Notes: a model not told the origin generated them from the sequence alone. A stretch of DNA of 64,000 nt from a virus (IMGVR_UViG_3300027740_000003:224001-288000), one strand, 5' to 3'. Positions 15,300 through 61,426 are shown, counted from the first letter of the stretch. Made by a program: numbers and translations.

Positions 15300-18200
15300 T
15301 TATGGATAGGTTGTTCCAAGACCAGCCATCTCACTTGGCGTTATGGTCAATACTTGGTTCTTCCATCCAGCTTTCTTCAAATATATTACAACCTGTATCT
15401 TGGAAACCATTGTTGCAAATAACGGGTTTTCATCAAGATCCCTTATCGTTAATCTAAGGAAGCCTGTAGAATGATCCATATACGTTCCAACTATATCATC
15501 AATTATTATTCCATAGCCGTCAACTAAGTCATATCCATCTAAAGAAGGAATGAAGCTTTGAATAGAAACATTGAATCTAACTTTGTTCCCAGCCAAATCT
15601 TCTGGCTGCACTGTTGTACAATCAGCATACCTCATGGCTGGATAATTAGCATTAGTCATTCCATCACCACGGTCTGATACAAAATCTCCAAATATATCAA
15701 ATGAGGTTTCTGAAAATATCTGTGTTCCCAGTTCTAAGTTTATTATTCCTACCTCAATATCTACAGGAAGAGGAGTTCCATCAGGACGAATTAAAGAACC
15801 TGACCCAATAATTAGATTACCAGGAACATAGAAATCATTTCTACCAGGATCACAATCCGGAATCTCATTAGACCTTTCGGTACAATCAAATTGTGCAGAT
15901 TGTGTACAGTCTGCCGCATCTATACTTGTAGGATAAGTAAAAGCACATGGCACAGCTCTTGCTTCTGCATTTAATGACAACATCCAATCAGCCCAGAAAG
16001 GAACATATATTATATCATAGTCTACAGAAACAAATGGAGCCACCTGATATACACCAGAATTGTCGTCATCAATTGTAGAAGACGTTATATTTCCATAATA
16101 TGTTTTTTCTATATCTGATAATGAAGACGGATCAACTGTAGTAGGACAAGTATAAATTGGACCATCTGATTTTATATATCCATCACAAGTAAGTGTAATC
16201 GGATTCTCTGTTTGATAGCAAACCCAATATCCATCACTTCTAGCAACGGCCGGTTGAACTTCTAATTCTAAATGTGTAAAATAAGATCCTACTGGGAAAT
16301 ATCTATACCCATCTTCTCTATTAACATATCTTTGAATTAAATCGACATCAATTGCAGAAACAATTCCGTCTCCATCAACGTCAGCTCTGAGTATTTCTAA
16401 AGTAGTAAAATATCCGTCTAGAATATCTTGCTGAGTAGCTGCGCTGGTTATATCGCAGCCTATTAGTTGTGCTGCCCTTGCTACGTCTGCTGATGTAATA
16501 TAACCGTCTCCATTTACATCTCCATAGCCGTCATTGCACAAAGTTTCTTTATATATTCTGTATTCATATGCTGCCGTATTATCTGGTACAATTTTTCTTC
16601 CAACTAATCTGTTTGCTAGAAGATCCCCGTCGGGATTAATAATAATGAAAGAATTATCATTGGCAAGACCTGGATAAGTTTGTGTTTTTGTTATTGTTTC
16701 TCTGGTTTTTGGATTGATATCGGCCATACAACCGATTGTTAAAGGTTCGGAAGTTTGCCTTAATGTAGTTAATGTAGCCGATGTTGCAAAGCTAAAAGAA
16801 GGAACATACTGTTTTCTTGAATAAACATTATTTCCAGTTCTCTCATCTTGTGTAGTAATTGACTTTTCTATTGCTGCCTCTATAACTCCGATATTATTTA
16901 TGCCCTCGCCGTTTGAAACGAAGTTATAGAATCTATTATAATTATCTATAGTTGCACCAGTAGTCTCATCTATTTCGGTTTTCTCTATAGCAATACCATT
17001 TCCTCTATCATATGCTTGGCCAGAAGCAAACTTGGCAGAATTTGACCAAACCTGGAACCACATATCTTCTTCAAGAGAATCAACCCAGATTGCATTAAAT
17101 ACAGTGAGTCTTGAATTGTCTAGAGTGTCAGTGCCCACTTCCATATATATTGTTCCAAGATCAGCGCTTCCACTTCTCCTCACAGTAAAAGCATAATATT
17201 TACCATTCTCAACACCACCAGCGGCAGCAATAACAGAATTAGTAAAAACGAAATCTACAGGCTGAGGAACATCAGTTAACACATAACCTGCATCTCTTAA
17301 CTCTGATTGACTAAAACTAAGTTCAGTTAATGGCCTTTCTTCTGGGTCAAAGTCGATAGCTAATTCGGGGAGAATATCTGTAGGACAAGCTGTAGTTGTT
17401 TGTAGTCTATAAACCGATACAATAAGATCTCCGTTCCAATTAAATCTATCTTCTATATCAGCAGTATAATCTCCAGACACAGACATAAGCAAAGTAATCT
17501 TTTGAATATTATTTGTACTAGCCAAGAATTTTTGACCAATCTGTGTAGTGACGTCATTGGGAAGAATGGCTCTCTGTGGCTGCCTTGATGTAATATTTAT
17601 TTCAAGATCATCTGCGTCATAAGCGGATCCAATACCATTTTGGATAACGTTCCAAATTGACAGGTGGCAATCTGCTGGTCTAATATCACGAATAAATATA
17701 TTAGGTTCGATATCTTGACCAACCACCATTGCGTCTCTGTTTAGCTCAAGAGGCAATGCTTCTCTGATAATTATTCTTCCGCCCCAACAAGCAGAACAGT
17801 TATTGTTTCCATCAAACCCGCTTAATAAAATTGTTAATATATTTGTATAATGTCTAAATGTGGTTTGTGTTTCTTTTTTATGAAACTCGAATCTATCATA
17901 TTGTAAATTACCCTCGAAATCTAAACCTATAATAAGAACTTTAACATTATATCTACCAAAAGCTTTTGCTAAGGAGGGTTTTGTGGTCTGTGCAATACTT
18001 GAATCGGCATATTCTATAGACAATTGATTACCAAGAAGAGTGTCGCTTGGTTGGGTTGCGGGAGAAAGACCTGTTCCATCAAGGTTATTAGCTGCTTGTA
18101 ATTGGGCCTGGACAGCAGATAAATTATCTGTATCAAATAATACAGTTGGTATGGGGTTCTCTAAAAGAACACCAGACCCAAACATATTTTGAACAATAGC

Positions 18201-18311
18201 AGAAAAGTTCCCATTTGTATTATCTTGTTCTACGTTCATATCAGACAGATCCACTTTCTGGCCATCTGCCCAATTATTTTGTAATGATGATACTGGTATT
18301 CTTGTTGTCAT
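15300..18311 (-). CDS. Baseplate-peripheral / fibre-type virion protein with a dockerin-like double EF-hand module
   Basis: N-terminal WADGQKV..SDMNVEQ resembles fibre/baseplate attachment N-termini; dockerin-like repeat pair; follows the wedge genes; 8 DGY motifs. Confidence 0.6.
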   Translation of the reverse strand: MTTRIPVSSLQNNWADGQKVDLSDMNVEQDNTNGNFSAIVQNMFGSGVLLENPIPTVLFDTDNLSAVQAQLQAANNLDGTGLSPATQPSDTLLGNQLSIEYADSSIAQTTKPSLAKAFGRYNVKVLIIGLDFEGNLQYDRFEFHKKETQTTFRHYTNILTILLSGFDGNNNCSACWGGRIIIREALPLELNRDAMVVGQDIEPNIFIRDIRPADCHLSIWNVIQNGIGSAYDADDLEINITSRQPQRAILPNDVTTQIGQKFLASTNNIQKITLLMSVSGDYTADIEDRFNWNGDLIVSVYRLQTTTACPTDILPELAIDFDPEERPLTELSFSQSELRDAGYVLTDVPQPVDFVFTNSVIAAAGGVENGKYYAFTVRRSGSADLGTIYMEVGTDTLDNSRLTVFNAIWVDSLEEDMWFQVWSNSAKFASGQAYDRGNGIAIEKTEIDETTGATIDNYNRFYNFVSNGEGINNIGVIEAAIEKSITTQDERTGNNVYSRKQYVPSFSFATSATLTTLRQTSEPLTIGCMADINPKTRETITKTQTYPGLANDNSFIIINPDGDLLANRLVGRKIVPDNTAAYEYRIYKETLCNDGYGDVNGDGYITSADVARAAQLIGCDITSAATQQDILDGYFTTLEILRADVDGDGIVSAIDVDLIQRYVNREDGYRYFPVGSYFTHLELEVQPAVARSDGYWVCYQTENPITLTCDGYIKSDGPIYTCPTTVDPSSLSDIEKTYYGNITSSTIDDDNSGVYQVAPFVSVDYDIIYVPFWADWMLSLNAEARAVPCAFTYPTSIDAADCTQSAQFDCTERSNEIPDCDPGRNDFYVPGNLIIGSGSLIRPDGTPLPVDIEVGIINLELGTQIFSETSFDIFGDFVSDRGDGMTNANYPAMRYADCTTVQPEDLAGNKVRFNVSIQSFIPSLDGYDLVDGYGIIIDDIVGTYMDHSTGFLRLTIRDLDENPLFATMVSKIQVVIYLKKAGWKNQVLTITPSEMAGLGTTYP
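16315..16535 (-). other. Dockerin type I-like domain
   Basis: GDVNGDGYITSADVARAAQLIG and RADVDGDGIVSAIDVDLIQRYV, two DxxxDGxxxxxD Ca-binding loop-helix repeats. Confidence 0.75.
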
Positions 18312-18314
18312 AAA

Positions 18315-21300
18315 TTACTCTATTATATTAATTGTTGCTTTTGCGTGAGCTGGTTTTAATGTCAAAATTAGCTCTCTTAGTATTTGGTTTATTTTTGCAC
18401 TGCCAGAAACAATATCAAAAGAATCAATTACATTAAGAATAAAACTAAATATTCCATATTGTTCATCTCTTAAAATTGCAAAGTCTTCATTTTCTGCAAA
18501 TATTTGGTCAAAGTTCATTAAATATAATGTGTAAAGATCTTCGACCACAGGTCTTACTATATCAATGTTTGATTGATAATTTTCATCTATCGGCACTCCG
18601 GCAGAAACAAGTGGAGCTCTTGCAATATTACTAATCTTCAAATTGTCAAATCTTGCAGCTGCTAGACTATAACTCCGATAAGTTGAACCAATATATAATT
18701 TATTAACCATATCTAGGAAGTCTATATTGGCTATCAATTTAGAACTATCTATACTAGCCCCTTCTCCAAACACAATGCCTGAACCAAATACAAACCCTTG
18801 GCCAAATCTAATTGAAGCTTGTTCCCTTCCATCAACAAACATTCTTAACTCATCAAGGTTATCTCTACGGTTAAATTTAAATGTTGCACAAATTCTGTGC
18901 CATGTATCTCTTTGCCAAAATATTGGTTGTCGTACTTCAAACACATTATTATCCGCATAAACTCTAAAGTTTACGTATCCATATCTATCCTTAAATATAG
19001 AAATTCTATCTCCATTAAAACCACTAGAAATATATGAGATTTTAACTGGTGTTCTTGCAGATGGCAGAGCTGTTCCTAAATGAACAGTCATATAATCATT
19101 AGCAATACTTCCTCCCGCATAATACTCTTTTCCAATTTCATTAACATCAGTTAATAACCTTACACTTAATACTTGGTTTATTCTTCCTGCTGTTTTGATG
19201 GTTGTAGGCGTTAGACTTACGATCTCTTCAATAACAGAAGATGTAGCATCAAAATAATATCTTTCTACCGGATCATTATATGTATCGAACCGCGGGCTTA
19301 TCCAAAATTCTATAGTTCCTTCCGATTTTGTTGACAAATAACCATTATTATCTATAACAAATGGCCTTTCTGTTATTACTAAACTTTGATTGAAATATTC
19401 ATTTAAACTAGCAGATGACTGTAAATATTCTTTATAAAACATTTTATAAATGCTGGCTTCATTTGTAAATAACAAATCATCGAAATGAAGAAGCATTAAT
19501 GTATTTTGATCTGGTCTAAAAGCTCTTAGAGTATTAAAATCGGTCGTAATTGTGTCTTCTGTTGCGGCAGCAGTTTCTCCAATTCTAATATCTGTTAGCA
19601 TGGTGGACAATACTTTAAATTCATCTATTACCGCTTTTGCTTGATTTGTTCCATTAAAGTCAGATCCAATATATCCCATATGTCCATCAACATTAGTAAA
19701 GGGGATCTCTAACCAAGCAGCATAATCAAACTCATATCTTCCTTGAGGAAGATCATATGGGGTTCCAATAGAACCAGCTAATTCAAACATAAAGAAACCG
19801 TTTTGGAACCCCGACCTTCCAATGGTAGCATTATATACTTTAAACACACCGCTGGTAAATACTACTCCAGGAACAGGATCTAATAAAATAGTTCCATCAA
19901 CATACACTTCATCAATTGTATACGTTCCGGCAACAGACAATGGAGAACTGATAACAATATAATTTCCAACATCTGTGTCTATAAAATGTCCACCTGAAAC
20001 AATAGTTCCATCAGCACTAGCTAGATTGTTTCCACTCTTCTCTTGAAATGTAAATCTGATTATTGGGAACGCATTATTACCATCCGGATCAGTTAAAGAA
20101 TAAGCTTCCTTTACCTCAATAGATGTAGTGTATTTATTAATTATAACTGGCACAACGGTTATAGTAATGTCAGAAATTGTCATCCACCAATATGTAGTTG
20201 TTATTGTGGTTGCCGAAGTAAACGCTAGAGTTTCGGTTGCTCCTCCAGAGGACGTTCCTGTAATGACAACTTGTACCGGAGTAGTAAAATCAACATTATC
20301 GCTGGTTATTCTAACAGCTAATCTCCTTCCTTCAACGGTATTAGATACTGCCGTTGGAACAATTCCACTTATTACCGCTGGAGAAGATGAAGCATACCCG
20401 TCATATAAAGGCAATATTATCGAATAAACATCAACCTCGTCAAGGTTTATTGGAGGAGGCATTTGTGTTTTAATAATACTTACATAACCATCACTGCTGC
20501 TTCCCCATAAATAAACATTATCCCTGCACCTTCTATGATTGATTCCGAGCGTTCTTATATATATTTGATCTCCAATATCTGCGGGACCATAAAGTTGTAA
20601 AACCGTTTGTAATAAAGCGTTCTTGTAAACTCTATATGCTGGGAAGTTAGCCCTCTGTCCAGCAATTTCTGTTTCAACATATCCGTCATATAACGAAACC
20701 GCAATATTAGCAGACAAATTTACCTCATCAGATACAACTGCCGAGAAGGGATTAATTGAATATCTGGCATCATTTAGTGTTGTATATGACGGCTGGTCTA
20801 ATGTAAGTGTATGTCCGCTTACAATAGTAATGTTTGCGTCCACAAATCCCAGTTCTAATATAGAAATAGTATTTCCTGGTACAACGCCATCAATAGCAAA
20901 ATTTATTGTTGGAGAATATACTGTATATGTTCCAGCAACTGTTTGTAAATCATCTCCACGGAATATTTGATTTGAAATTGTTCCTACTACGATTTCTGGT
21001 TTGACTATCCTAAACCTATCACCAGTGGCAACAATTGGTCTTCCACCATACTTTAATATATTAGGAACTTCAACTCCATCTATAAATAGATGTAATTCGT
21101 CTGCCCGGTCATATGTATCTATTTTCCAAGCCGTTGAAACCAAATGTGTTTGTCCTGATTGCCAACTTGAAATATCAGCACTTACTTTATATAATCTATA
21201 ATTACTATCAAATACTTCAAAATTAAGATATCCTTTTCCATCTTTATAAATAGACATCCTATTTTTTGCCTTGGTTCTTCTTGCAGATATCTCAGCAGGA

Positions 21301-24300
21301 TGTTCTCTTCGTGAAGTAATGGTTCCAATAAGACCAGTCGGAACCTCTACAGGTTCTGCCATATCAAATAGATAATGAGAATCATCCGACATGAAAGTTA
21401 TTCCGTCAAAAGAATATCCGTCTACATAACCATCTCCAGTCGTATATCCGTCATATGATACATCGTTCCCCAAATTCCATTCAAATTTAATCTCGTTAGT
21501 TATGCTTCTTAAAATATCACCCGATTCTCCAAGATCTTGAATAAACTTGACATCATAAAATTCACCAGACGTAAATACTTTGCCAGAATACTCATGGGAA
21601 ACAGTTGTAATGTCTTTTGCCAAGAAATTCCAGCGTTTAGTTGTATCATCATAATATATAAACACACCACTGTTTGATAGATAAATTGCAGAAGGAACGC
21701 CAACAGGACTTAGATCATCTAATCTATTTACTGTAAAAGATCCATTTGTTATTGTTGGATGATGGCTGCCTGATCCAATATAAATATTATTAGATGACAC
21801 TGCATATCCGTCCAACATCAAATTAACAAAAGTTAATGTCGCATCATTATCTAAACCATCCCATTCTGGGATAACAAACATTTCCATTGTTCCTTCACTG
21901 ATTCTTATATTATCAGAAATTGGAAATGAAATTGTTTGATCTGGTTCGTTTATTAAAATACCGTAATCAAATTTGCCAACTACTAGTTCTGGTTCCCCAG
22001 TATAATTTATTTGATTATTATATAGTGTGCTAATTCCTAGCGTCCAAATATCAAAAATTGATTCTATTATCTCAGGGTCAACTTTTGTTATATTTTTTAC
22101 AAGATTTTTAATTGAAGGAATTGTTGGGCCTTGTGGGAAAGATTGCAAAGCTCCTTTTAATGCATCTCTGTAATTCTCCCTAGGAAGAGAAGTATCAAAA
22201 CTCTGCATTATTGGAAGATCAACTAATGTTCCAAAGTTGGCCAACAAAGCATCACGTAAAGCCCCAACTCTATAAGAGACATAATATTCTGTTCCCTCAT
22301 CAATAGATGTGCTTTCTCTAAAGTCAATAGAGTTATCTCCCCATTCATAACTAACCAATATTTCATCAGCCAAATATGAATAGTCTACGAAATAATCCCC
22401 TCTGTTATAATCAACAACAGGAGTGGACCCTCCATTCAAATTCACATTATAATTAACTGAAACAATGTCCCCAACGACCGGGGCTCCAATACCAGATAAT
22501 GTTAAAACATAGTCAACTATTGTACCGCTTGAATCCCAAAGCTCTACACCATCTGATATTCTTAAAACACTACTTACAGAAACAACACTTATTCCATCAC
22601 TTATAAATGTAAGGTTAACTTCGTTTCCAGCGCTGACAGCACATATTTCTTGAATATTATATCCAGCACTGTCTATTGTTATTATATTGCCACTTATCGT
22701 ACTTCCTGTAGCAAAATTTATCGGATCTGCATTGTTGTTCAAATCATATAAATCAAATATTCCACGGACATCCTTTGGGTTGTCAGAAACAGTTATATTA
22801 TCAGCTACACAAACATATGGCAACGTAGTATCTTCATTTAAAAACCGCTCATCTGATCTGCCAAAAGTATTTGGAATAATTTCTGTATCAGTAAAACTTG
22901 AATAATCAAGCGTAATAGACACTCCAGCATTTGGATTTAAACTATGATAAACTTCAGAAACGCTAATTATATGTTTGTTTTCCGTTGTTATGGCGGCTTT
23001 TTTATAATTAATTGTTCCTAAATCAAAAGTCTGTGCAACAGAAACTCCAACATATACAATGCCATTTATATAATCTACTAAATAATCTCCGACAGTAAGC
23101 TTGTTGATATTTTGAGGAACAGTATATGTTTGACCATCAAAATATAATTCATTTATAAAAATATCATTTCTACTAAACTGTACGCTAGTATTGAAGCTAG
23201 ATCCTATAACATCTTCAGTAGAACTTATTATAGTGTCATTTAATAGCTCTATAGTAAAAATTCTAACCAAAGATACGTTTGTTGTCTCAGAAGATACCAA
23301 AAGCGTTTCATTTAATACATCAAAAAATGTTGCACGTTCTCTGGTTATATCAAATATTCTCGGATATTGATTGGCTGAAAAATATATTGCTGTATCACTG
23401 AATCTATTTACAACATATCTTTCTCCAGTTGTTTCATTATATAATCTAAACACGTTGGTTATAGGATAATGTTCTGTATGTAAAGAAGTAAGAGAATCTA
23501 GTCTATTATCTATTCTTTCATCTAATTCTTCTACATGAACGTTTCCATTGTAATCAGTGCCAGGAACAAAAACCTCTTCGTAATCAAAAGATATGGTTAT
23601 TTCTCTTTCGGCAAGATCTCTTAATGGATTGGCTACTACTTCCATAAGCTCTGGATTATAAGTGTAGTCTAAATTGTTCCTGTATACTTTTCTATAATTA
23701 TAATTCATCACTGGTGGAAATACACCAGTACCATCATTCGTTGTTGCTCCATATACAAATACTCTTCCATTCTCATAATCAATTGCATAATCACCAGGAT
23801 TGCTTGGTAGCCCTTCCATTTTAAATGTAATTTCATTTAAAAAGGCCGGATGTGTTTGTGAGAAAGGAACAACAGATCTTGGATTGAGAAAATCTACGCC
23901 TCCTGAATCTGGTATGTTATCAAGAGTAGTGACTACAGGAGCATAATCTAAAGAAAATTCGGTTATAATTGCGGGAGCAACCTCTCTCAAAACAGGAATA
24001 ACTTCGCTGACAACTACCGTATCTTCACTAATTTCTCTGCCAAGAGACTTGTATTCATATTCTATTATAATTGTATCTCCGGCCACCAGAGGATCTATTA
24101 TGTCTAAAATATCATCACTTAATTTAAATTGATTATTTTCTAATAAAAGATATGTAGAAGCATAATCTGTATCATAAACAGAATTTAATATTTGATAACC
24201 ATACTGTTCAATATCATAATCAACTACGGTTCCATTATAATAATGTATTTCTACTGAAGACAGTTTCGTTGTTGGACTATGATTAACTGTTAACGTCAAT

Positions 24301-28000: not shown

Positions 28001-28281
28001 AAAGTAAGAAGTGCTGGCCCGGTAGATTTTGTACCAGTTTTTCTAGTAAGTCCAAAGTTTGCGCCCAATTTATCTAGGTCAGCACCCAAAGCAAGCCTAA
28101 TAGATTGTAAAGTAGATATCCGTTGTAATTCCTGATATAGTCTAGATAATTGTGCTGCGGGGGCATCTACAAGAAGATCTCTAGAAACAGTTCCAGGTTT
28201 TGTGTCCAAATCCGGCTGAGCTGTTCTAAAAAAATCAAGCAATGATAAAATAATTTCGTTTTGGGACCTAATCCTTACCAT
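25009..28281 (-). CDS. Baseplate J-like wedge protein (P2 gpJ / T4 gp6 family), expanded
   Basis: LGADLDKLGANFGLTRK..TKSTG, GNI...ITGISNITN..SFSGG..AEDDAAFRSR...GT..GY, C-terminal VAGVDRARV. Confidence 0.88.
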   Translation of the reverse strand: MVRIRSQNEIILSLLDFFRTAQPDLDTKPGTVSRDLLVDAPAAQLSRLYQELQRISTLQSIRLALGADLDKLGANFGLTRKTGTKSTGPALLTFNSIDANIPVNRGDVVSARNGTSFLIKSSFVISQSLANNYRAIASQYRAELDTAGITDIYAVEVLTECSIAGLQGNISKYSLRNVSITGISNITNVVSFSGGTLAEDDAAFRSRMLAVFSGSNTGTSLGYRNAVLTDPAALDALVIEPGDDLMTRDGTQVYVNPETGERTIISEGTGGRVDVIVYGTRLQEIIESFIYIDKSNTGSPDNIANDYVIGQIPADAGKTVTRKRLDDLETGILPNQPVNNILNISGSVSGNNFKEKSVDSLGRISGNYELVKDTGAYAGSAWGFDKLRWISDTIEDLSEDKTKGIFNGQDTLSFTDIVNISSSKQRINVVNENSSVNRTNRASIQLAHVPITNVTRVFNATTGERYVITSQNPDGTGDVNNTGRITISGSSLPSISDILQVDYTWIKEFDPFIDFDGRISNINPNPRDVLDSVDWGYSNAVRREEATLSASGSVLLATVAHPVSAVVSVNTTRNYSGIITSINGRSAVVVPLAVQNVVSIVRLVDGTDLWNTSVADGTFTGFTIFLPTDGLGSSGQLVDVIYNYIDVYNATGLQGSFDNNIITIVPSTDAADGYIVEANYIANIKTLLPATVLANLPALKNLNAFDTLTAVGVGCQPSTFVAIQNLRQAPSSLVLSVSGSISPGIFTITGTTIHKVKDAVFAVAPQLNQELTINLGVAIRASLGLNSTESIPSNLKVARVVSVEKVEATTGNDVLSVEQEYDIKGYILRDNTYFRSESIEDSTTIAISQGRNVLTYNEFRLPATITNEANPPEAGNKVRITFYYTLDSDIENVSFSKSGTLYTDKIFAIVNSIIISSGFSSGASQAATLTVYALNQPNTGSRYQSYYDYLAPKQNERISLRYNLNKLIGDSQLAIENTRPITADVLTKEAQAILIDITMNIVVLSEFTNNTATVKQNVQDAIIGALNANALNTTVDSSDLIAVAQSVAGVDRARVLYFNTSESAGNVLSISAQKNQYLQANDVVINIEQR

Positions 28282-39777: not shown

Positions 39778-39784
39778 TTCTTCC

Positions 39785-51600: not shown

Positions 51601-53813
51601 TGGAAACGATGATAGTTATAAGCTGATGGGGTAGAGCTGTCGATCATATTATTTAGATCGAAACCAACAGTATCGTTCCCAAAATGTATTCTTACTTGAA
51701 TTCCCATTCCAGGCCCAGTTGAAGAACTAGATGCGCTACCTGTTGCATGAATGCCATTTAATACAGTAATTATTGTATTTGAAGTATCACCTGGACAAGC
51801 TGGCTGATATACAACAGACTCTATAATAAATCTACCATAATCAGCACTATTATAACTAGCCGAATTCACACCGATATTTGGCAGAACGGTAATTGTCTTT
51901 CCTGGTTTTAGACCAGCCGTATTAAGACAATCATATATGGTGTATGTTGTGCTTACACCTACGCCAGAAACGGTTCTTGCTGTAATATCAGCAAGCCAAT
52001 ATCCATCATAAACGCCTATTGCCGATCTTAAATAATCTCTTGCAGAACCATCTGCAACATAATACCTTTGTTTTCTAGGCATTATTATTTTTGATGGATT
52101 TTGTGCATCGGTTGAATTTGTATAAGAAGACCTATATGCAGGGCTGGCCCAATTTCCAGCATTAAAACTTAGGCCTAAAGCGTCCCAATATTTATTATCT
52201 ACGTTATAATCGCCAATAACATTTTCAGTAAAACTTCCTTCAACTCCAGATCCGGAACTCCAATCTCCATTAATTATTGAGAAAGCTGCTCCATCAAAAG
52301 GATCAGTCATTGCTATTCCAAAATTCCCGGCATATTGGAATGCCAAGAATCTCATGTTGTATCCTGACTGTCTAAACACATTGTTTGTGGCCAACACAAC
52401 ACTGTCTAAAGTATACTGTCCAGGAGTAGCTCCAGAGTTGCCAGAAACATCTACAGCAGGCATAACTATAGCTTTTTCAGCCGGATTTCCTGTTGGATAC
52501 AATTCTAAATATAAATTGTAATGTGTAGAATCAATTTGGTTTGGATCAAATCCTATACCAAGAACAGATGCACATCTTGGATCTGCAACAGTGACGCTTG
52601 AATAAAATCCCGGGAAATATCCTGTCGGAGTGGCATTACATGGTGCAGATATTGCTATGCCGTACACATTTGGATCATAAAGAGCCCTGTCTATTCTTGC
52701 ATAGGCATCTGTTGTATCAAGAAGGTTGTTAGAATCTAATCTTACACAGAACTCAATTCCAGGACTATATCTTAAAGATTCTACAATATATTGTGCCTCA
52801 AAATTATAACCGTCTCCATATACAATTCTAAGAATATCTCCCGGTTTAACTTGAGAGAATTCTGAATCTAATTGATATAATTCTGTTGAACTAGTAGGAA
52901 CATTAAATCTGACAATTTGATCGCCATCATTTACATCATCAACCGGTCCTGTCCCAGGAAAAGCTGCCACATAAGCCTGAACTTGTCTCAAAGAAACAAC
53001 AGCATCTCCATAACCATCCGTAATTAAACTCGAAGACCTAGCGTCTCCTGGAACACCCGATGAATGTTGAATTGCCCTATGCAAACCTATTCTCAAATCT
53101 TCAGAGGCATCTAGCTCTTCAAGAGCTGTTTGAACATCTATAGCTTCCTCCGACAACTGCATAAAATTACTGGTATCTACAGATATGGCCGTCGCTGGAT
53201 GAGAACCAGTAATTGCTATTTCATGCCCAACTAATTCGTTATTAATTTGCTCTAAAGCTCTTCCAACATTAGTTGCACTACGTATATTGCCGCTGGTATC
53301 AAGCAGTCCTGACCAAACAAAAGAAGGGTCTCTAGAATCTGAAGGAATGGCATTAATATCAACATGACTTGCTACATGTCGAACCGAGGCAGAACCTCCA
53401 CCAATATGTAAACCAAGACTGGTAGTGAGACCATTAACCGCTGTTTGAAGAGATGTTATAAGTGAAGAATTTGTTGCAATTAAGGATCTTAAACTAGAAG
53501 TGCTATAATCTAGATTAAGTTTCGATTCAGCGATGCCAGCACTGACACCAACTTGAGCATTATCAATAGGAAGGGTGACCAAACCAATAGCGGTTAAAGC
53601 GGCGGCTTTAACCGTTCCATTTGTATTGAATGAAACATCAAGAAATTCTTTCAAAGAATCAAGTGTGCCAGACGGTTTTATGCCAAGCTCTTCTTCAATT
53701 TTAAATACAGCATCGCGCACCTGGTTAAAATTCTGACCACTTATCTCGGAAATGTTATCATTGACGACATAAATAGTAGAGTTGTCATCGTAGCTGTAAG
53801 GGTAGGTTGACAT
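48627..53813 (-). CDS. Tail fibre / tailspike with a C-terminal right-handed beta-helix (pectin-lyase-like)
   Basis: N-terminal YP...D...NQVRDAVFKIEEELG; repeated (I/V)xxNxF/C coils (NIENCSF, IIGNSF, FIEKNIC, ISKNKC, VRNNSC, LDGNIL, IINNSF, ITGNTI, ISNNYL, ITDNYL). Confidence 0.75.
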   Translation of the reverse strand: MSTYPYSYDDNSTIYVVNDNISEISGQNFNQVRDAVFKIEEELGIKPSGTLDSLKEFLDVSFNTNGTVKAAALTAIGLVTLPIDNAQVGVSAGIAESKLNLDYSTSSLRSLIATNSSLITSLQTAVNGLTTSLGLHIGGGSASVRHVASHVDINAIPSDSRDPSFVWSGLLDTSGNIRSATNVGRALEQINNELVGHEIAITGSHPATAISVDTSNFMQLSEEAIDVQTALEELDASEDLRIGLHRAIQHSSGVPGDARSSSLITDGYGDAVVSLRQVQAYVAAFPGTGPVDDVNDGDQIVRFNVPTSSTELYQLDSEFSQVKPGDILRIVYGDGYNFEAQYIVESLRYSPGIEFCVRLDSNNLLDTTDAYARIDRALYDPNVYGIAISAPCNATPTGYFPGFYSSVTVADPRCASVLGIGFDPNQIDSTHYNLYLELYPTGNPAEKAIVMPAVDVSGNSGATPGQYTLDSVVLATNNVFRQSGYNMRFLAFQYAGNFGIAMTDPFDGAAFSIINGDWSSGSGVEGSFTENVIGDYNVDNKYWDALGLSFNAGNWASPAYRSSYTNSTDAQNPSKIIMPRKQRYYVADGSARDYLRSAIGVYDGYWLADITARTVSGVGVSTTYTIYDCLNTAGLKPGKTITVLPNIGVNSASYNSADYGRFIIESVVYQPACPGDTSNTIITVLNGIHATGSASSSSTGPGMGIQVRIHFGNDTVGFDLNNMIDSSTPSAYNYHRFHEIYANKGAKTVSHERARMPIHGATATALDSTYWHINYVSSKLRGYRDNTANFNKYIRLSIDTYDITTGEFTARIGRRPVAGDTQPPSTTTIANTGITATGKKNVPFKVFDETGNDYIELEYVETSTSPTTIVPVRVVDIEVMPSLMEDDELTLISTCEMNWSGGLLVERVRDQRQVGSISEKEFTASAKSFITAGDRALHANGVIRDLDCLGATDVVDTRALYFNGGLAFINGNIVSVNNSKILIPRLIESGGSAAVNWVVCVNEDGALVSLPITATKQQFFAQAGSGGGTSYFVPSVTFTELITERKDLLPLATLTASGSLLSSILDIRRFAADESFNIPFVWAEDETNFSASFRSAEALQNWITLAATATSQSFKQKVIVRGTIVLSTALDFSAIPNLVLEADGIESATIVISSTVGIKVADSVSIRNINFIYGPSLATGNNVNISLSAPLACVLIKPTLSSSTINNINIENCSFFGAGNPYRYPFIYMILNNNIVENCSIIGNSFSDTYATTSAAIVIANSNTDGLVHSILNNVFIEKNICAQEQGIFIVGTSSTALPPITAINVHISKNKCGYIGVSAGSNIDPEDSNNQPGLFISENACNAIYGAVDIYGQIYITVPKTLASTIVRNNSCSTINFNYTSNATPRTGQSAVILDGNILTRSVFTTTFGAYDTHLNVNYGINVYDNVSAAPQLIPAKIINNSFQSGSTYSSATVLEYTYGIRALSPCVITGNTIRAFTTYGIYTVISTYTEATGSIISNNYLFRGTNSITYYIVGSGAGIITDNYLDKTTVDGTSEITIDVAMGRASPTIVERNINHVITFPVKTTQGTPIWTYGTYRWTHWNNSPIYWGKNTAATNNSETIQLRYDSAISTSAATSRWCLPLKGFIPSGAYIMSATIYGETSVIFATTGNITLRAIYNELAGDYGTVITTASSGTNPMNFAATTIANATIDINRKLEENVEIEILADLQTSAVSDINLTLIIKYRF

Positions 53814-54239: not shown

Positions 54240-54629
54240 TTAGTTTTCATTATCTTTTACATAAACATCAATCCAGGCTCGCCAATAAAATCCACTAAAA
54301 TTAATTGGTAAAGCAATAGAGAATCTTGCACATCCTGTCCCAGAAACATATGAGCTTGATAATGATGCTGACGTATATCCTCCATCATCCCAAACAACTG
54401 TAGCTCCAGCAAATACAACTGTCGTATTTCTTTTATTAAAACAATCAAATGCTTTCATGGCAAAATACTCAGTGGGCTCCCGACTATGTGCAACAATATT
54501 TATTTCAAACATATATGTTGCGTCTACCTCAAGAAGAGTGCCAGATGTAAGAGGAATATCTATAGTATTACCACTTGCATCGCTTGGAATATATCCGTCC
54601 ATTGTAAAATGTACAACTTTATCACTCAT
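54240..54629 (-). CDS. Small beta-rich protein, probably virion/fibre-associated
   Basis: 129 aa, coupled to the Gly-rich fibre gene; contains one DGY. Confidence 0.5.
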   Translation of the reverse strand: MSDKVVHFTMDGYIPSDASGNTIDIPLTSGTLLEVDATYMFEINIVAHSREPTEYFAMKAFDCFNKRNTTVVFAGATVVWDDGGYTSASLSSSYVSGTGCARFSIALPINFSGFYWRAWIDVYVKDNEN

Positions 54630-56440
54630 TATAATACCTCATATCCATGGTAATGCACCATCCTTACACTTCCAGATTTATATACTGATATTAACATTCT
54701 AGGATCATCTTCGCCCAAATGGTTAAATTGAAAATATCCGCTATTTGCAAGGTTAGATTTTAACGAAATTGGACCAGACGTTCCAGTTGAAGCTCTATAT
54801 CCTGTTATTAAATACATTTGACCAAATGCTCCGGCAGCACTACCATCACCACAAGAAATGCTAATATTTCCAGCGTTTCCAGAAGCCCCAGCATTACCAG
54901 TATAAATATTAACACTTCCGGCATCGTCCCCAGTTGCATCACCAGTATACATTGAAATGCTTCCAGAATCTCCAGATTGTCCACTATATGTATAAATAGA
55001 AATATCTCCAGAACTATAAGTTCCACCAGCCAAAGATCTGATAATAATATTACCAGACCCTCCACTAGAGGTTCCTTCACCGCTTTCTATTGTAATATTT
55101 CCTCCAGGAGCTGAAGTACCAGAGCTTCCACCGGTACCACCAGTTAACGTAATGCTTCCACCACCAGCAGATCCCCCTGCTCCATATCCACCAGTTAATG
55201 TAATGCTTCCACCAGCAAAACTACCACCTCCATATCCTGCAACCACTACAATATCACCAGGTTTTGTCGTTCCTCCACTGTTCCCAGTGGTTATTTCAAT
55301 ATCCCCAACGTTAGATCCTCCACCATCTCCTGTGGCCAATCTAATGTCTCCTGAAGCGCCTACACTCCCACCATCACCAGTTGTAAAAATTATATGGCCA
55401 GAACCACCGTACAAAGATCCGTGAGTTGATAGTGTAATGTCCCCAGAAGAGACGCCTTCTTCTGTAGAAATTGTTATATCTCCGGATGCAGCTCCAGTGA
55501 TGCCTGTTGCCGCAGATCCAGATGTAATAGTTATTGGCCCTCCAGTGCCACCACCGCCGGCCCCACCAGACCCACCAACAATACTTACAAAACCACCATT
55601 GCCTGTCCCAGCACCACCACTACCGGCCCAAACAAATATATTTCCACCAGCATATGCTCCAGAACCAGTCCCAGGATTTAATGTGATCTCACCAGTAGCT
55701 CCTGACCCACCATTATTTCCAGTAGTAATACTTACAGCCCCTGTACTATCAGAAACCGATGTCCCCGTTCTAATTGATATATTCCCGCTTGAACCAACAT
55801 CAGCGTTGCCAGAATATAAAGAAATCGCACCAGTTAATAATAACCCGTCTCCTGTATATAAAGATAATGTTCCCGAACCAAAAACTGAAAGTCCTGAAGA
55901 TAAAGAAACATCCCCCGACGCAGAAGATCCTCCATCTCCAGATTTCACAACCAAATCACCAGAACCACTTCCTGCTAAAGACCCCCCGGTTCTAAATGAA
56001 TATGTTGCCCCTTGTCCCGCAGAATAATAATTAGAACCAATTGTTGCTGTTAAAGATCCTGCGTGATAAAATCTTACAGCCCTAGACGTAATAGCTTTTA
56101 AATCTATATGCTCATTAGAGCTAGTTATATACGATCCATCATTAAGATCTATAAATTCACCATTTGCCTGATTGTCAACAAGAAGAACATCTTCCAATCC
56201 TGGATTAAATAAATATCCATCAAGAATAGAATTAACACTCTCTAATGCTTCTTGAACATTAATGCCAGGAATATTGATTAATTCTGGATTCATGTTGATG
56301 TCGTCAGCACAATGATTAAATTGCTCTCCAGATGCATGTGCTAAGAAATCACGCTTATGTACAGCAATATATCCACCCTCAGGGGTTCTTGATGTTGCGC
56401 TTGAAAATGGTGTCCTTGGCGGTGTGCAACCTGATGCCAT
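54629..56440 (-). CDS. Gly-rich repeat fibre-like virion protein
   Basis: About 26 repeats of G-x-I-x-(L/I)-x-(T/S)-G; N-terminal H..D.I...VQEALE motif shared with the 1728-aa fibre. Confidence 0.7.
   Translation of the reverse strand: MASGCTPPRTPFSSATSRTPEGGYIAVHKRDFLAHASGEQFNHCADDINMNPELINIPGINVQEALESVNSILDGYLFNPGLEDVLLVDNQANGEFIDLNDGSYITSSNEHIDLKAITSRAVRFYHAGSLTATIGSNYYSAGQGATYSFRTGGSLAGSGSGDLVVKSGDGGSSASGDVSLSSGLSVFGSGTLSLYTGDGLLLTGAISLYSGNADVGSSGNISIRTGTSVSDSTGAVSITTGNNGGSGATGEITLNPGTGSGAYAGGNIFVWAGSGGAGTGNGGFVSIVGGSGGAGGGGTGGPITITSGSAATGITGAASGDITISTEEGVSSGDITLSTHGSLYGGSGHIIFTTGDGGSVGASGDIRLATGDGGGSNVGDIEITTGNSGGTTKPGDIVVVAGYGGGSFAGGSITLTGGYGAGGSAGGGSITLTGGTGGSSGTSAPGGNITIESGEGTSSGGSGNIIIRSLAGGTYSSGDISIYTYSGQSGDSGSISMYTGDATGDDAGSVNIYTGNAGASGNAGNISISCGDGSAAGAFGQMYLITGYRASTGTSGPISLKSNLANSGYFQFNHLGEDDPRMLISVYKSGSVRMVHYHGYEVL
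54760..55975 (-). repeat. Protein-level tandem repeat array (G-x-I-x-L-x-T-G units with Gly/Ser linkers)
   Basis: e.g. SGDLVVKSG, SGDVSLSSG, SGNISIRTG, TGEITLNPG, GGSITLTGG (twice), AGSVNIYTG; degenerate at DNA level. Confidence 0.85.
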
Positions 56441-56489: not shown

Positions 56490-58130
56490 TTAAGGCATAA
56501 TGATGTTGTGAACGTGGCCACGACCCTCAATTCCAGACATTACAGCTGGCATAATTTGGCCGTTAATCACATCATGCAAATGAGACTCAGATATATTTGT
56601 TGTATTATTAATCTGAGATAATGCAACAGTATTATTGCTAACAACAAGCTCGTGCGTGTGCGGTATAACCGTTCCGTTTGGTCCCCTTAGCAAACCAACT
56701 GTTGTTGTCAATACAACGGGGAAATCTGCTGTGCTTCTTAATGCTCTCCATTGATATATTGGACTTGTCTTCCTTATTCTCTGAACTCGGAAATGCTGGT
56801 TTCCTGTCTGGCCATACAACAACACACCCCTAGTGACGTCAAGAATCTCATATCTAAATTCTTCTGTTCCATCAGGATTAAATCGGATCAATACGTCTCT
56901 GTCCTTTAATGCCGGATAACTTAATGTCCAACAATCAAAATTAGCTGTGCTCTCCAATCCTGCGTCTTCCATCTTTAGGTCTTCTGCTGTTGGTGTAAAC
57001 CTAACTAAAATCCTACTATCTCCTCTACGCGGGTTATAATATTGCTCATACCCCCCGACAAATCCTACCCCAATACAGCTCGGGCATCTTGCATCAGGAT
57101 ATTCTTGGTTCACAGACATACAACTGCAAGTAATTCCTTTCCACAACCTTCTCAGCAACACACACAAAGAACCTGTTCCGAGTTGTTCCAAAAGAAATTC
57201 TTGCAACCTATCTGCTTGATCAGAGAAAGATACATTTCGAAGCTGTTGGTTAACTCCATTATAACCATCGGCGCAAAAAATCTCACCGCCAAGATAACTG
57301 TCCAAACAATTCCCACCAAATAACAAAGAAGGATCTGTTCTGTGCCATCCTACTTGATCATATGCTGGGAAATCTGATCTATCATCGTCATTCAAAGACA
57401 AATCAGCCATTAACATGCTTGTTCTGTCGATAACCCTATAGCCATCGGATTCAACAAATACTCCATTTGGCGGGCCGTATACGTTTTGTTCCTGAATAAT
57501 AAATGCATTATCTTCTTCGTATCCTTTCCAGAATGTTATTACAGGATTTCTATAACCATATCCGTCATAACCATCAGTTAAATGAAGCCTAGCATTTGAA
57601 TTTAAAAAGCCTCTTTGCCCTATTAGGGTACCGTTGCCTAAATCTCTTGAAGTATATCTAATAAGCTCGTAGCCTACCTGTATGACCCCATAATTAGGAA
57701 ATATATCTACATCAGTTATTGGAATAACCGTCTGAGTATCATCAATATCTTCTGATAATAATGTTTCTGGGTACACATACAAATTTGTATCAATTTGTGC
57801 CGGGTCTCTAGGAAGAGTGGTAATATCATACCAGGCCGGATCATATTCAGTTGCCCTAACAACAAAGTAATATGTGTCTCCAGGTTTAAAATCTACAATT
57901 TCTGCTAATAAACCACTTGTGTTAGTAGAGACAAATTTAGGACCTTCAGAAATTTCATGGTCTTGTATTGATGAGTAATAAATATTATATGCAAGAGAAT
58001 AGTCAGAAGGACTAGCAAAGGCCCGCCTAAAATGAACAACCATCTTGTAGCCGTCTGAATTTGAAGCCACAAGTTTTATTCCTGCACTTGTCCAAGGAAT
58101 ATAAAATGGTTTTGGTTGTTCACATGCCAT
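56490..58130 (-). CDS. Neck / head-closure-like protein with N-terminal FN3-like domain, Cys4 zinc site and C-terminal HxH repeats
   Basis: Start ATG 58130 with AGGAG RBS; AYNIYYS...FKPGDTYYFVVRA (FN3); LRRLWKGITCSC...RCPSCIGVGFVGGY; HTH, HLH and HVH near the C-terminus. Confidence 0.6.
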   Translation of the reverse strand: MACEQPKPFYIPWTSAGIKLVASNSDGYKMVVHFRRAFASPSDYSLAYNIYYSSIQDHEISEGPKFVSTNTSGLLAEIVDFKPGDTYYFVVRATEYDPAWYDITTLPRDPAQIDTNLYVYPETLLSEDIDDTQTVIPITDVDIFPNYGVIQVGYELIRYTSRDLGNGTLIGQRGFLNSNARLHLTDGYDGYGYRNPVITFWKGYEEDNAFIIQEQNVYGPPNGVFVESDGYRVIDRTSMLMADLSLNDDDRSDFPAYDQVGWHRTDPSLLFGGNCLDSYLGGEIFCADGYNGVNQQLRNVSFSDQADRLQEFLLEQLGTGSLCVLLRRLWKGITCSCMSVNQEYPDARCPSCIGVGFVGGYEQYYNPRRGDSRILVRFTPTAEDLKMEDAGLESTANFDCWTLSYPALKDRDVLIRFNPDGTEEFRYEILDVTRGVLLYGQTGNQHFRVQRIRKTSPIYQWRALRSTADFPVVLTTTVGLLRGPNGTVIPHTHELVVSNNTVALSQINNTTNISESHLHDVINGQIMPAVMSGIEGRGHVHNIIMP

Positions 58131-59349
58131 TAACTCTCCTTCTGTTAACACTTGTTACAATTCCAACCGCCGCTTTAACAGAAATTCCGAATTTTTTTGC
58201 CACCACTGAATAATCTTTCAAATCATTATATGCAAATCTTACATCCTCTAAAGAATATCCGTTAACTAAAGTATAAAATTCAGATTGTATTTTATATTTT
58301 CTAAGCCAAATATCTAAAGTTATTTCACTACAATTTAAAAATTTTACTATTATAGATTTAGATTTATATTCTTTAGCAAGATATAATATTTGATTTTTTT
58401 TAATTTCTATATTTTTTTCGGCATTTATTTTTTTTTCAAATTTTATATTTTCTCTATTTTTTTCAAATTCTTTATATTTTTCTGCAATTTCTTTTTTTCT
58501 ATTTAAAAATACCGTAGCATTAGCATATAAATAATTATATAAATTGTGAATCGACAACGTATCACTATAAACCAAATTATCAAATGCTAATTTTATTTTT
58601 CCATATCTTTTTTCTATGTTTCTTTTTTTCTTTAATCCTATGTTATTTTTTTTCATTATATTATTAAATGAATTTAAAAAATAAACATTCCCATAAATAC
58701 TAAATACAACAATTTTGTTATTTATGGAAAAACAACCATCACCACCTATATATCCTCTTATAAAATGTCTAACTAATTCGTGATTTTTTAACCATTCTGG
58801 AATATCATAGATATAAGTTTTAGCAGAAATAATTCCAAATCTTTCTAATGATTTACAAATATCTATGGAATTAATCATTAATGAGCACATATTTGAAGAA
58901 TTGCAATTTTTTTTAGTATTTTTTATTTTGTGTCCTTTTTTACATATTTTTCTTATTGGATGTTGTGATTTTATATCTTTTTTAAATTTATTTAAATGAT
59001 TTGCATCCTTTTCTGCCAACTCAATTCCTAAACGATGAGGTATCATTTTTGGTCCTATAACCCAACCATCAGCAGCTATAAACCCAGCCCAATAAAATGA
59101 TTCTTCTGTATCTCTATTAAAAAAATCAAAATCTACATTATAAATTCTTTTTTTAGAATAACAACATTTAGGGCACCAACTTCCACCAAGAATTTCTAAT
59201 GGTTTTGCTTTCCATTTATGTTCTTTATTACATTTAAAAAAGATTTTATCTTTGCCAGTTATATATTTTTCTAATACCTCTCCGCCTTTGCTATTAACAA
59301 TAGCTATTAATCTTTTTTCACATTCTTGTCTACGTTCTTCATTTGTCAT
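58120..59349 (-). CDS. Free-standing double-motif LAGLIDADG homing endonuclease with N-terminal zinc ribbon
   Basis: YWAGFIAADG and FIRGYIGGDG motifs; CNKEHKW...WCPKC; C-terminal HTH-like segments; very AT-rich. Confidence 0.88.
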   Translation of the reverse strand: MTNEERRQECEKRLIAIVNSKGGEVLEKYITGKDKIFFKCNKEHKWKAKPLEILGGSWCPKCCYSKKRIYNVDFDFFNRDTEESFYWAGFIAADGWVIGPKMIPHRLGIELAEKDANHLNKFKKDIKSQHPIRKICKKGHKIKNTKKNCNSSNMCSLMINSIDICKSLERFGIISAKTYIYDIPEWLKNHELVRHFIRGYIGGDGCFSINNKIVVFSIYGNVYFLNSFNNIMKKNNIGLKKKRNIEKRYGKIKLAFDNLVYSDTLSIHNLYNYLYANATVFLNRKKEIAEKYKEFEKNRENIKFEKKINAEKNIEIKKNQILYLAKEYKSKSIIVKFLNCSEITLDIWLRKYKIQSEFYTLVNGYSLEDVRFAYNDLKDYSVVAKKFGISVKAAVGIVTSVNRRRVNGM

Positions 59350-60190: not shown

Positions 60191-60523
60191 TTATTTATCC
60201 TCTCTTTCGTATATTGCTGCCGGGCTCCAAAAAGCATCACTGGGAATTTTCCTTTTCTTTGGTTTTTTTGAAATTAATTGGAACTTCTCATGGTTTCCAC
60301 GAAGGTGCATATCATCTACAATTTCATCATCTTTTTTTAAATAATATTTGTTCCTAGAAAAACCATCTCCAATTGAATAACCAAACTTATTTAATATTCT
60401 TTCAAATGCATCAAATCCTTTAACCTTAGATAAAAGACGATTGATCTCCAAAATCTTTGTTTCGGAAAATAATAAAGAGGATAGTTTAAGAAGAATATTA
60501 TACATAACAGATAATTTTGTCAT
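60191..60523 (-). CDS. Hypothetical protein
   Basis: 110-aa ORF tiling the gap between neighbours in the same orientation. Confidence 0.5.
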   Translation of the reverse strand: MTKLSVMYNILLKLSSLLFSETKILEINRLLSKVKGFDAFERILNKFGYSIGDGFSRNKYYLKKDDEIVDDMHLRGNHEKFQLISKKPKKRKIPSDAFWSPAAIYEREDK

Positions 60524-60526
60524 ATT

Positions 60527-61426
60527 TTACCAGATTTGACGCTGTCTTAAAAATCTTAAACGCCTTACTTGAGGGGATCCAGACATTCCAGAAATTCCAC
60601 AAAGGCCTAAAGGCGCACTTTTCATGTTGCTCTTAATCAACTGGCACTGATCCTTCCACATAGTATATTCATTTGAATACTGAGTCATCAACACATCCGA
60701 TACGGCAGGTGCTTGGAAACTTACCCCATTATCATTGATCTGAAATTCTCTTCCCCTCTCAATTAAAGCCTTGCTTGCCAAAGCCCATATTAAAGCAAAT
60801 CTTACAATTATTTCCCCGAATATTCTAAAGAATTCTGTATCCTCAAATGTATAATCAGTAAAATGAGGAATCATATTAAAAGCATCTAGTCCAGAAATAA
60901 GAAATATAACCAACTGAGGAATGGTATAAATATCACAATCGACCATCTGTTGGTTGCCATACTGATCTCTTATCAATGCTTTGCCAGCAGAGTTCAATCT
61001 TGCCTTTAACATTGCTAATAGTTTATTTATATTTTTTATTGCGTTTTGTGAAAAATCGAAACCCGGTTCCTCACCAAGTCCGACATAGCCATCAGAATTA
61101 ATAATAGGAGCCTGTGTAGCATGAACCACAAAGTTATGTGTATTATAAAGAGTATTGGATCCATATACGCCTCTCCAATAATCTGTCCATACACCAAGAG
61201 AAGGAGTTGCCCCTACAGAATAATCATATCCATAATAACCGACTTGTAGTCGATAAACACCTGTGCTAGAGAAGTCAGAAAGCACATTCCCGCTAGGTTC
61301 CTGGATTGAAATCTGTGGAAAATAATCTAGATCAACAGGCTCACCAGTAGTAGGAGAACGGAAGTAAGTTCTTAATTGTATAATATCGCCTAATGTAGCG
61401 ATTTGTCCTCTAGAAACTATTGCCAT
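60527..61426 (-). CDS. Neck / head-tail adaptor-like protein with N-terminal Ig-like domain
   Basis: beta-rich N-half (QISIQEPSG...GYYGYDYSV...GVWTDYW), helical C-half with REFQINDNGVSF; first gene of the neck block. Confidence 0.55.
   Translation of the reverse strand: MAIVSRGQIATLGDIIQLRTYFRSPTTGEPVDLDYFPQISIQEPSGNVLSDFSSTGVYRLQVGYYGYDYSVGATPSLGVWTDYWRGVYGSNTLYNTHNFVVHATQAPIINSDGYVGLGEEPGFDFSQNAIKNINKLLAMLKARLNSAGKALIRDQYGNQQMVDCDIYTIPQLVIFLISGLDAFNMIPHFTDYTFEDTEFFRIFGEIIVRFALIWALASKALIERGREFQINDNGVSFQAPAVSDVLMTQYSNEYTMWKDQCQLIKSNMKSAPLGLCGISGMSGSPQVRRLRFLRQRQIW

Follow-up and report, generated by a model that had tools for sequence, protein, structure and literature searches.

An over-represented Asp-Gly-Tyr tripeptide in the virion proteins of a megaphage clade and its possible role as a glycosylation sequon

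The tripeptide Asp-Gly-Tyr (DGY) recurs in the virion proteins of a large phage whose structural genes lie next to a cluster of glycosylation genes, and the question raised by this locus is what the tripeptide does there. The stretch of DNA analysed, referred to here as the window, is 64,000 nucleotides long and corresponds to bases 224001-288000 of IMGVR_UViG_3300027740_000003, a single-contig phage genome of 435,004 bp with a guanine plus cytosine content (GC) of 35% that is rated complete by CheckV. The genome is labelled G000 and nearly all of its genes are carried by the minus strand. An earlier note, made from the sequence alone, claimed that DGY is strongly over-represented in the virion proteins and suggested that it is the acceptor site for the adjacent glycosylation cluster. 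We find that the enrichment is real and acts at the protein level, and that the excess is a trait of the megaphage clade to which this phage belongs. Why the tripeptide is enriched is a matter of competing explanations, which are weighed below.

Excess of DGY in the virion proteins

The 25 virion open reading frames (ORFs) between positions 15300 and 61426 of the window encode 15,116 amino acids (aa) and contain 32 DGY. The residue frequencies in these ORFs are 6.6% for D, 8.2% for G and 4.0% for Y, and the number of DGY expected is 3.2 from composition and 6.8 under a first-order dipeptide model (z of 16.0 and 9.6, respectively). Under either null no other tripeptide scores as high as DGY, and 5,000 within-protein shuffles gave a mean of 3.1 DGY and a maximum of 14. 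Tyr follows 32 of the 119 DG dipeptides (27%) and Asp precedes 32 of the 71 GY dipeptides, while the control tripeptides DGF and DGW occur six times and once. The hand counts of the earlier note (8, 7, 5, 3, 3 and six singles, adding to 32) proved exact on recount. The note had asked for a shuffled control across the genome; the enrichment survives the shuffles as well as the Markov null, and the genome-wide excess is confined to the virion block at 195-301 kb. This block (34,940 aa) holds 82 of the 105 DGY of the genome, spread over 24 proteins, where 7.1 would be expected (11.5-fold).

In the virion block, the sense reading frame has 82 instances of the corresponding nucleotide pattern GAYGGNTAY, compared to one to three in each other frame or strand, and the codons vary. 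Because the excess is found in the reading frame alone, selection is at the level of the protein and not of the DNA, which bears out what the earlier note had concluded from the varied codons. The tripeptides NGY, EGY, DGF, DGW and every permutation of D, G and Y are not enriched (EGY occurs 0 times with 6 expected), and there is no enrichment of DGV or DGI. A set of 585 mutually diverged contexts drawn from the clade shows a depletion of Lys to either side of the motif, Pro at 0.2 times its expected frequency right after Tyr and a mild preference for Val at that position, and the residues flanking DGY otherwise carry little information. The sites are frequently tightly clustered with gaps of 3-8 residues, and the tandem DGYDGY occurs. 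Part of the count stems from internal repeats, as a 1208-aa fibre encoded elsewhere in the virion block contains three repeats of ~95 aa with three DGY each. The Asp codon of DGY is GAC in 43% of cases in the virion block of this genome compared to 20-23% elsewhere in the same genes (p 0.001). This codon bias was dropped as a clue, since it was not reproduced in a complete relative, G001 (441,904 bp, GC 44%, sheath 45% identical), where the values are 23% and 28%.

The richest carriers in the window are two neighbouring genes on the minus strand, as are all of the virion genes located here by their window positions. The first (15300..18311) encodes a 1003-aa fibre-like protein with eight DGY (aa 594, 602, 632, 667, 693, 710, 925 and 931), and the second (18315..25007) encodes a 2230-aa baseplate wedge-like protein with a ConA-like lectin domain and seven DGY (aa 1066, 1186, 1192, 1196, 1441, 1506 and 1536). 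A type I dockerin is recognized in the fibre-like protein (aa 596-664; Pfam E 9e-10). They are followed by the genes for a 1090-aa baseplate J-like protein (25009..28281; one DGY, aa 672) and a 731-aa virion protein without a family match (30450..32645; one, aa 470). The 824-aa tail sheath (44601..47075) has three sites (aa 172, 179 and 196), a 266-aa protein whose gene adjoins that of the sheath (47154..47954) has one (aa 122) and a 1728-aa virion protein without a family match (48627..53813) has three (aa 266, 334 and 603). Single sites are found in a 129-aa protein (54240..54629; aa 11), a 603-aa protein (54629..56440; aa 74) and a 299-aa protein (60527..61426; aa 112). Five sites (aa 33, 193, 196, 236 and 295) are present in a 553-aa virion protein (56490..58151), in which five of the six DG dipeptides are DGY, as had been noted earlier. 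Outside of the window, the richest proteins are the 1208-aa fibre (19 DGY), a 943-aa beta-helix-like protein (7 DGY) and a divergent set of small proteins. The latter set consists of six divergently transcribed small to medium-sized ORFs on the plus strand (genome 290900-296540) that have no family match, contain 15 DGY in 1,861 aa and lack orthologs in G001; they may encode lineage-specific head or tail appendages.

DGY is absent from the major capsid protein (phrog_2522) and from a group of virion genes at 34774..44557 that encodes a 1667-aa putative tape measure, assigned by its position and length, 307-aa and 734-aa proteins and the tube-region proteins of 202 and 215 aa. The homologues of these proteins that were examined lack it as well; for the 307-aa and 734-aa families, DGY is absent from all of the 44 and 7 homologues, respectively. 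A 222-aa cement/decoration-like protein encoded next to the capsid gene has two DGY. The three sheath sites are located within a lineage-specific N-terminal part of the protein, outside of the conserved core (aa 525-820), and in a predicted model they sit in loops just before beta-strands (predicted local distance difference test score, pLDDT, 83-87 there). This distribution, as far as predicted models and protein assignments indicate, fits outward-facing proteins or protein parts.

The capsid gene is found at genome positions 298570-299583, just past the window. Bacillus phage G (497 kb) is the closest phage in culture that was found, and its capsid protein shares 51% identity with the product of this gene. 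The match between the sheath and that of Bacillus phage G is confined to the C-terminal fifth with 29% identity, and it follows that the two modules, head and tail, either diverged at very unequal rates or differ in their histories. The structural module also contains a 409-aa HNH/homing-endonuclease gene (window 58120-59349; phrog_4645, E 2e-37). This gene is probably mobile, as homologues are scattered elsewhere and include some on the opposite strand inside the glycosyltransferase clusters of relatives. Searches of Pfam, PHROGs, NCBIfam and PDB sequences with the glycosyltransferases and the DGY-rich proteins returned generic names or no match.

Occurrence in relatives and turnover of the sites

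Relatives were found in two ways, by the sheath (58 loci) and by an alignment of wedge homologues (79 loci); a single wedge sequence used as the query found no loci. The 58 loci found by the sheath (41-77% identity, GC 30-54%) contain 303 DGY with 42 expected. In the 79 loci found by the wedge alignment, the virion homologues contain 1035 DGY with 80.9 expected, compared to 13 DGY with 12.3 expected in the glycosyltransferase and replication homologues of the same loci. Homologues of the 1003-aa fibre in 69 relatives have 0-13 DGY (mean 6.2) and homologues of the 2230-aa wedge in 79 relatives have 2-16 (mean 6.2). The structural block of G001 has 52 DGY with 6.1 expected, and the remainder of that genome has 20 with 11.0 expected.

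Five outgroups were examined and no dispersed excess was observed. The tail module of Bacillus phage G has 2 DGY with 2.7 expected (33 with 21.3 expected across the genome), and the observed and expected numbers for the others are 3 and 3.5 (Eggerthella phage LE2-3), 0 and 1.5 (LR745208), 4 and 1.9 (Tunturiibacter phage Tunturi_5) and 1 and 1.4 (Rctr197k), for a pooled total of 10 DGY with 11 expected. Bacillus phage G does encode large paralogous proteins (1000-2000 aa) at 316-347 kb with blocks of the form DGYWYVRG and VDGYxVKxGG, and this region has 14 DGY with about 2 expected. Most of these are copies of one motif, since they lie in two conserved paralogous blocks. It may be that these blocks represent a forerunner of the motif seen in the clade, or an echo of it.

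The number of sites in a protein is kept while their positions change. For 34 reciprocal-best ortholog pairs between the virion blocks of G000 and G001, the DGY counts are strongly correlated (Spearman rho 0.88, p 1e-11), with pairs such as 8/5, 7/5, 5/5, 3/3, 3/3 and 2/2 and many 0/0. Sites at the same position account for 6 of 34, which is threefold the rate of all tripeptides (5.6%), yet a minority. Insertions specific to G000 contain 13 of the 34 sites compared to a baseline of 10% (p 2e-5). Four homologues of the 553-aa family have 5, 5, 5 and 3 DGY that are distributed over eleven alignment columns, and the G001 ortholog of the 1728-aa protein also has three DGY and shares none of the positions. 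Other sites are more stable. Of 37 homologues of the 266-aa protein, 31 retain its site, and DGY is kept at the sheath columns in 29-31 of 43 homologues, the others having DSY, DAY or DEY at these columns and DGY elsewhere. The retention of counts with changing positions is the behaviour of sequons and short linear motifs and not that of a structural residue specific to one fold. The comparison of sequences suggests that what selection maintains is how many motifs a protein has and not where they lie.

The middle residue is relaxed in one lineage. In phages like G001, DGY occurs 73 times with 6.1 expected, DAY 32 times with 5.4 expected and DSY 17 times with 8.1 expected, whereas elsewhere, including the genome under study, DAY and DSY are at or below expectation. 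From this relaxation, what the motif essentially requires is an Asp and a Tyr separated by one small residue. An Asp and a Tyr so spaced face the same side of an extended chain. A lineage-specific relaxation is what would be expected if the tolerance of a reader of the motif had changed.

The glycosylation cluster and the explanations of the motif

The glycosylation cluster occupies positions 2-15233 of the window. It contains about ten enzymes of the GT2 and GT4 families overall. Some eight belong to GT2, one of them with two domains and a length of 925 aa, and there are enzymes of the GT1/GT4 type. These are accompanied by NAD-dependent epimerases, a UDP-GlcNAc 2-epimerase, a dTDP-sugar isomerase-like protein and a methyltransferase. 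Most of the cluster (2..14035, minus strand) differs in gene content among the relatives. The earlier note observed that no glycosyltransferase of the cluster has a DGY, and this holds; the single DGY of the cluster lies in a 411-aa DUF4379 zinc-finger ORF (12800-14035) that is not a glycosyltransferase. Between the fibre block and the cluster (genome 209911-219666) lie genes for a ribonucleotide reductase, a sigma-70-like factor, a DnaB-like helicase, a UvsW-like helicase and a TubZ/PhuZ-like tubulin, none of which has a DGY. Relatives whose clusters are small have the genes for UvsW and the tubulin immediately behind the glycosyltransferases.

The conserved part of the cluster is a soluble 401-aa GT4 enzyme without DGY (14028..15233, minus strand) that is encoded immediately downstream of the fibre. 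Of the glycosyltransferases near the fibre gene, no other has a clear ortholog in G001. The order wedge-fibre-GT4 is found in 57 of the 59 relatives with enough flanking sequence, and the number of glycosyltransferases behind the GT4 varies from two or three to about ten. The two exceptions (L128 and L181) have no GT4 beside the fibre, and a phage of the same type has the GT4 and four GT2 enzymes ~75 kb away on its contig. No loss of the GT4 was found among the clade members examined; the contigs of three of them (G006, G007 and G010) stop before the expected position. A profile search with the GT4 recovered G001 at E 2.8e-153 and nothing in the five outgroups. Many residues are invariant among 75 homologues, including the first Glu of the EX7E motif. 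In the predicted model the enzyme adopts a GT-B fold (pLDDT 86.5). Many GT4 structures match the model, the top match in the PDB being a glycosyltransferase of chlorovirus NY-2A (3oy2), which is marginally ahead of many bacterial GT4 enzymes. A complex prediction for the GT4 and sheath residues 140-240 returned a score of 0.00, which weighs neither for nor against binding. In the G001 lineage the GT4 has 754 aa and is composed of two fused GT4 units. The extra length was considered as a new acceptor domain and this was rejected, as it is no more than the fusion. The fusion and the relaxed motif coincide in one event only.

Transmembrane-like segments are absent from all 17 ORFs of the cluster. 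The complete genome has no member of the families of Wzx-type flippases (Polysacc_synt), Wzy/ligase-type enzymes (Wzy_C) or initiating phosphoglycosyl transferases (Bac_transf). The absence of membrane segments, flippase, ligase and initiator fits direct glycosylation of protein in the cytoplasm. The gene arrangement fits a scheme in which the 401-aa GT4 is the candidate initiating enzyme on virion proteins and the variable enzymes act as extending enzymes.

Since sites come and go at a steady number, it is probable that something reads the motif, the sugar-adding enzymes of the phage being the most plausible reader. The explanation that we tentatively favor, at somewhat short of an even chance, is that DGY is a glycosylation sequon read by the phage's own soluble glycosyltransferases. 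The features described for sequon-based glycosylation that can be seen in genomes are present here, namely a candidate acceptor motif under selection (11- to 13-fold, in virion proteins only) and a genetically linked transferase. The motif, D-(small residue)-Y with Gly strongly preferred, would be a short linear recognition motif located in loops of exposed virion proteins, and its carriers would be the fibres, the baseplate wedge, the outer sheath, the products of the genes lying between those of the sheath and the capsid and the cement-like head protein. The conserved GT4 would place the first sugar on the motif, the simplest acceptor being the Tyr hydroxyl with the Asp two residues upstream as a specificity element. 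Extension by the lineage-variable GT2 and GT4 enzymes would follow in the cytoplasm, either ahead of assembly or while it proceeds, and the resulting glycan would coat the outside of the tail and head. Of this, the sequences show the enrichment, its restriction to virion genes, its spread in the clade, the turnover of sites, the relaxation in one lineage and the genetic linkage to a conserved GT4 that is plausible as a catalyst, whereas we infer that the GT4 would act on protein, that DGY would be its acceptor and which atom would be modified. The wider version of this proposal, in which a soluble GT4 glycosylates Tyr in D-(G/A/S)-Y, in dozens of loops on the fibres, baseplate, sheath and head cement, throughout a clade of 200-480-kb phages and variable enzymes build differing glycans on it, is held with slightly less confidence still.

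The acceptor proposal of the earlier note has thus come through in part: the enrichment withstands the nulls, and the GT4 and the excess occur together. The comparison of relatives that it had suggested speaks for the proposal, since all of those with a glycosyltransferase cluster show the excess and the five outgroups that lack the conserved GT4 do not. Several observations weigh against glycosylation at DGY. The link between the GT4 and DGY is one of co-occurrence and may reflect one evolutionary origin; the two are found together in all of the clade members examined and are both absent in the outgroups, and if this has a single origin it is statistically close to one observation. One lineage (L176/L178) has an intact GT4 beside a fibre with 0 DGY, at a locus where the excess is 3.8-fold. 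The second Glu of the EX7E motif, which is Glu in 70 of the 75 homologues, is Gln (residue 299) in this genome. The capsid protein, the most abundant protein at the surface, carries no DGY. Outside of the virion block (99,384 aa) there are 23 DGY with 14.2 expected (1.6-fold), so stray sites are not depleted, although a promiscuous cytoplasmic enzyme might select against them. The glycosyltransferases have generic family matches only and could act on host polysaccharide or another substrate. Finally, a glycan at DGY, on either Tyr or Asp, is a prediction from sequence.

A somewhat unlikely alternative is that DGY has no reader and is a building block in its own right, a tight Asp-Gly turn that presents Tyr at the start of a beta-strand. 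The clade would use it repeatedly, either to stabilize exposed loops through an Asp-Tyr hydrogen bond or the binding of calcium or another metal, or to form many weak sugar-binding patches by which the virion would adhere to glycans of the host surface. The location of the sheath sites just before beta-strands in the model would be explained in this way, as would the preference for Val or Ile after Tyr and the positional conservation of some sites (that of the 266-aa protein and about 30 of 43 for those of the sheath). However, NGY is a better turn former and DGF, DGW, DGV and DGI would start a strand equally well, and none of them is enriched. A generic structural idiom would also be expected in the beta-rich tail proteins of other phages, where the five outgroups show none, and most sites shift position although their counts stay the same. 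For metal binding, which the earlier note had raised as a calcium-binding turn, two of the sites in the 1003-aa protein are in or beside the first calcium-binding loop of the dockerin, but an EF-hand-like loop holds only one or two of the 33 sites in the window. The EF-hand/dockerin loop (DxNxDGxI...D) was therefore rejected as the general context; it holds only in the dockerin of the 1003-aa protein, and Asp is not enriched at -4 or -2. For sugar binding, sugars are commonly bound by an Asp paired with an aromatic residue, and the proteins richest in DGY are the fibres and the lectin-domain wedge, which are receptor-binding parts. A single host ligand is unlikely given that the clade spans a GC of 30-54% and many habitats.

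It is less probable again, and on balance unlikely, that DGY is read by something other than a glycosyltransferase, with the glycosylation cluster as a bystander. The reader could be a decoration, chaperone or assembly protein, or an enzyme that modifies Tyr or Asp in another way (sulfation, phosphorylation, nucleotidylation, cross-linking or isoaspartate chemistry). All of the signatures of a motif that is read, namely strict residues, retained counts with turnover, relaxation and restriction to one clade, are equally predicted by such a reader, and the tight clustering of the sites resembles multivalent docking. The propensity to form succinimide and isoaspartate after Asp is highest with Gly, followed by Ala or Ser, and the order of the middle residues parallels this. 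Against this alternative, the only conserved enzyme genes that are physically tied to the DGY-rich genes are those of glycosyltransferases. No candidate for another reader was identified, though the sulfotransferase, kinase and Fic families were not searched for, so that this absence does not itself count against the alternative. The genome encodes no cohesin domain, so the partner of the dockerin, if there is one, would be of the host or unrecognizable.

Cleavage by a maturation protease, which the earlier note had also listed, is very improbable: a protease cutting after Asp would prefer a small residue next, and 5 of the 82 sites are found no more than 20 residues from the start of a protein with 2.6 expected, but with 19 sites in one fibre, three within 25 residues of the sheath and tandem DGYDGY the tail proteins would be shredded, and the capsid protein, the classical substrate of head proteases, has no site. 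An artefact of composition, repeats, paralogy or a DNA signal has next to no probability, for although the repeats of the 1208-aa fibre do add to the count and paralogous blocks do explain the local excess in Bacillus phage G, it is ruled out by the nulls and shuffles, the spread over 24 proteins, the 585 diverged contexts, the restriction to one frame and the range in GC of the clade.

If Tyr is glycosylated at this motif across the clade, it would be the first tyrosine-directed glycosylation sequon to be described, and the coat it specifies would be the first sequon-based glycan coat to be described for a phage particle. This would bear on host recognition, on the sticking of the virion to its environment or its shielding from it and on the evolution of giant-phage tails, and glycoengineering would gain a three-residue tyrosine tag together with a soluble enzyme. 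If the motif does not serve glycosylation, it is still an unexplained short motif on which selection is strong and ongoing, in proteins of a single virus clade whose folds are many and unrelated. Apart from the eukaryotic linear motifs, few comparable examples are known.

Comparison with known systems

The earlier note knew of no description of the motif in phages, and a literature search likewise found no paper with "DGY motif" and no relevant one that joins Asp-Gly-Tyr to glycosylation. Glycosylation of phage virions has been described in mycobacteriophages, where, in the account of Freeman et al. (2023) as cited in PMC12619734, it is at their C-terminal ends that the capsid and tail-tube subunits carry the glycans. 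As far as that account goes, the two cases are alike in that phage glycosyltransferase genes adjoin structural genes and the virion surface is the proposed target. They differ in the target proteins, as the capsid and tube-region proteins have no DGY here, at their C-terminal ends or elsewhere, and a dispersed tripeptide is found instead on the fibres, wedge, sheath and cement-like protein. The acceptor would also differ by the same account, being Tyr or Asp here, where the system is known from its genes. Additionally, a 2025 paper on "moraphages" (200-307 kb, with predicted Bacteroidota hosts) described four core groups of glycosyltransferases and raised virion glycosylation as a possibility (PMC12619734).

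Glycans O-linked to Tyr are found on the S-layer glycoproteins of Paenibacillus, Thermoanaerobacter and Thermoanaerobacterium (PMC2943079). The likeness lies in the Tyr acceptor of a bacterial surface-array protein, which in the phage is proposed. In the S-layer systems the glycan is built on a lipid carrier and transferred outside of the cytoplasm by an O-oligosaccharyltransferase, and the review states no consensus motif and describes few sites per protein (PMC2943079). In contrast, the phage genome has no such transferase, no flippase and no initiating enzyme.

Several features of the phage motif resemble those of bacterial sequons. Sequons are known for Bacteroidota, D-(S/T)-(A/I/L/V/M/T), for Campylobacter PglB, (D/E)-X-N-X-(S/T), and for the cytoplasmic enzymes of the HMW1C type, N-X-(S/T). 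The shared features are a length of three to five residues, an obligatory Asp beside the acceptor or two residues before it and the exclusion of Pro, which here corresponds to the depletion at +1. Many sites per adhesin-like protein are another likeness, and the HMW1C-type enzymes are cytoplasmic, as the phage enzymes would be. The acceptors of these systems are Asn, Ser or Thr and not Tyr, and those of Bacteroidota and Campylobacter use lipid-linked glycans and periplasmic transferases, machinery that is not in this genome.

Chloroviruses glycosylate their own capsids in the cytoplasm. They have eukaryotic algal hosts, unlike the phage, and their glycans are N-linked and carried by the capsid protein. 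The proposed phage system is nevertheless like that of chloroviruses of the PBCV-1 type in that soluble glycosyltransferases and sugar-nucleotide enzymes are encoded by a large virus itself, which pairs them with an atypical short acceptor motif and dispenses with any lipid-linked or oligosaccharyltransferase step.

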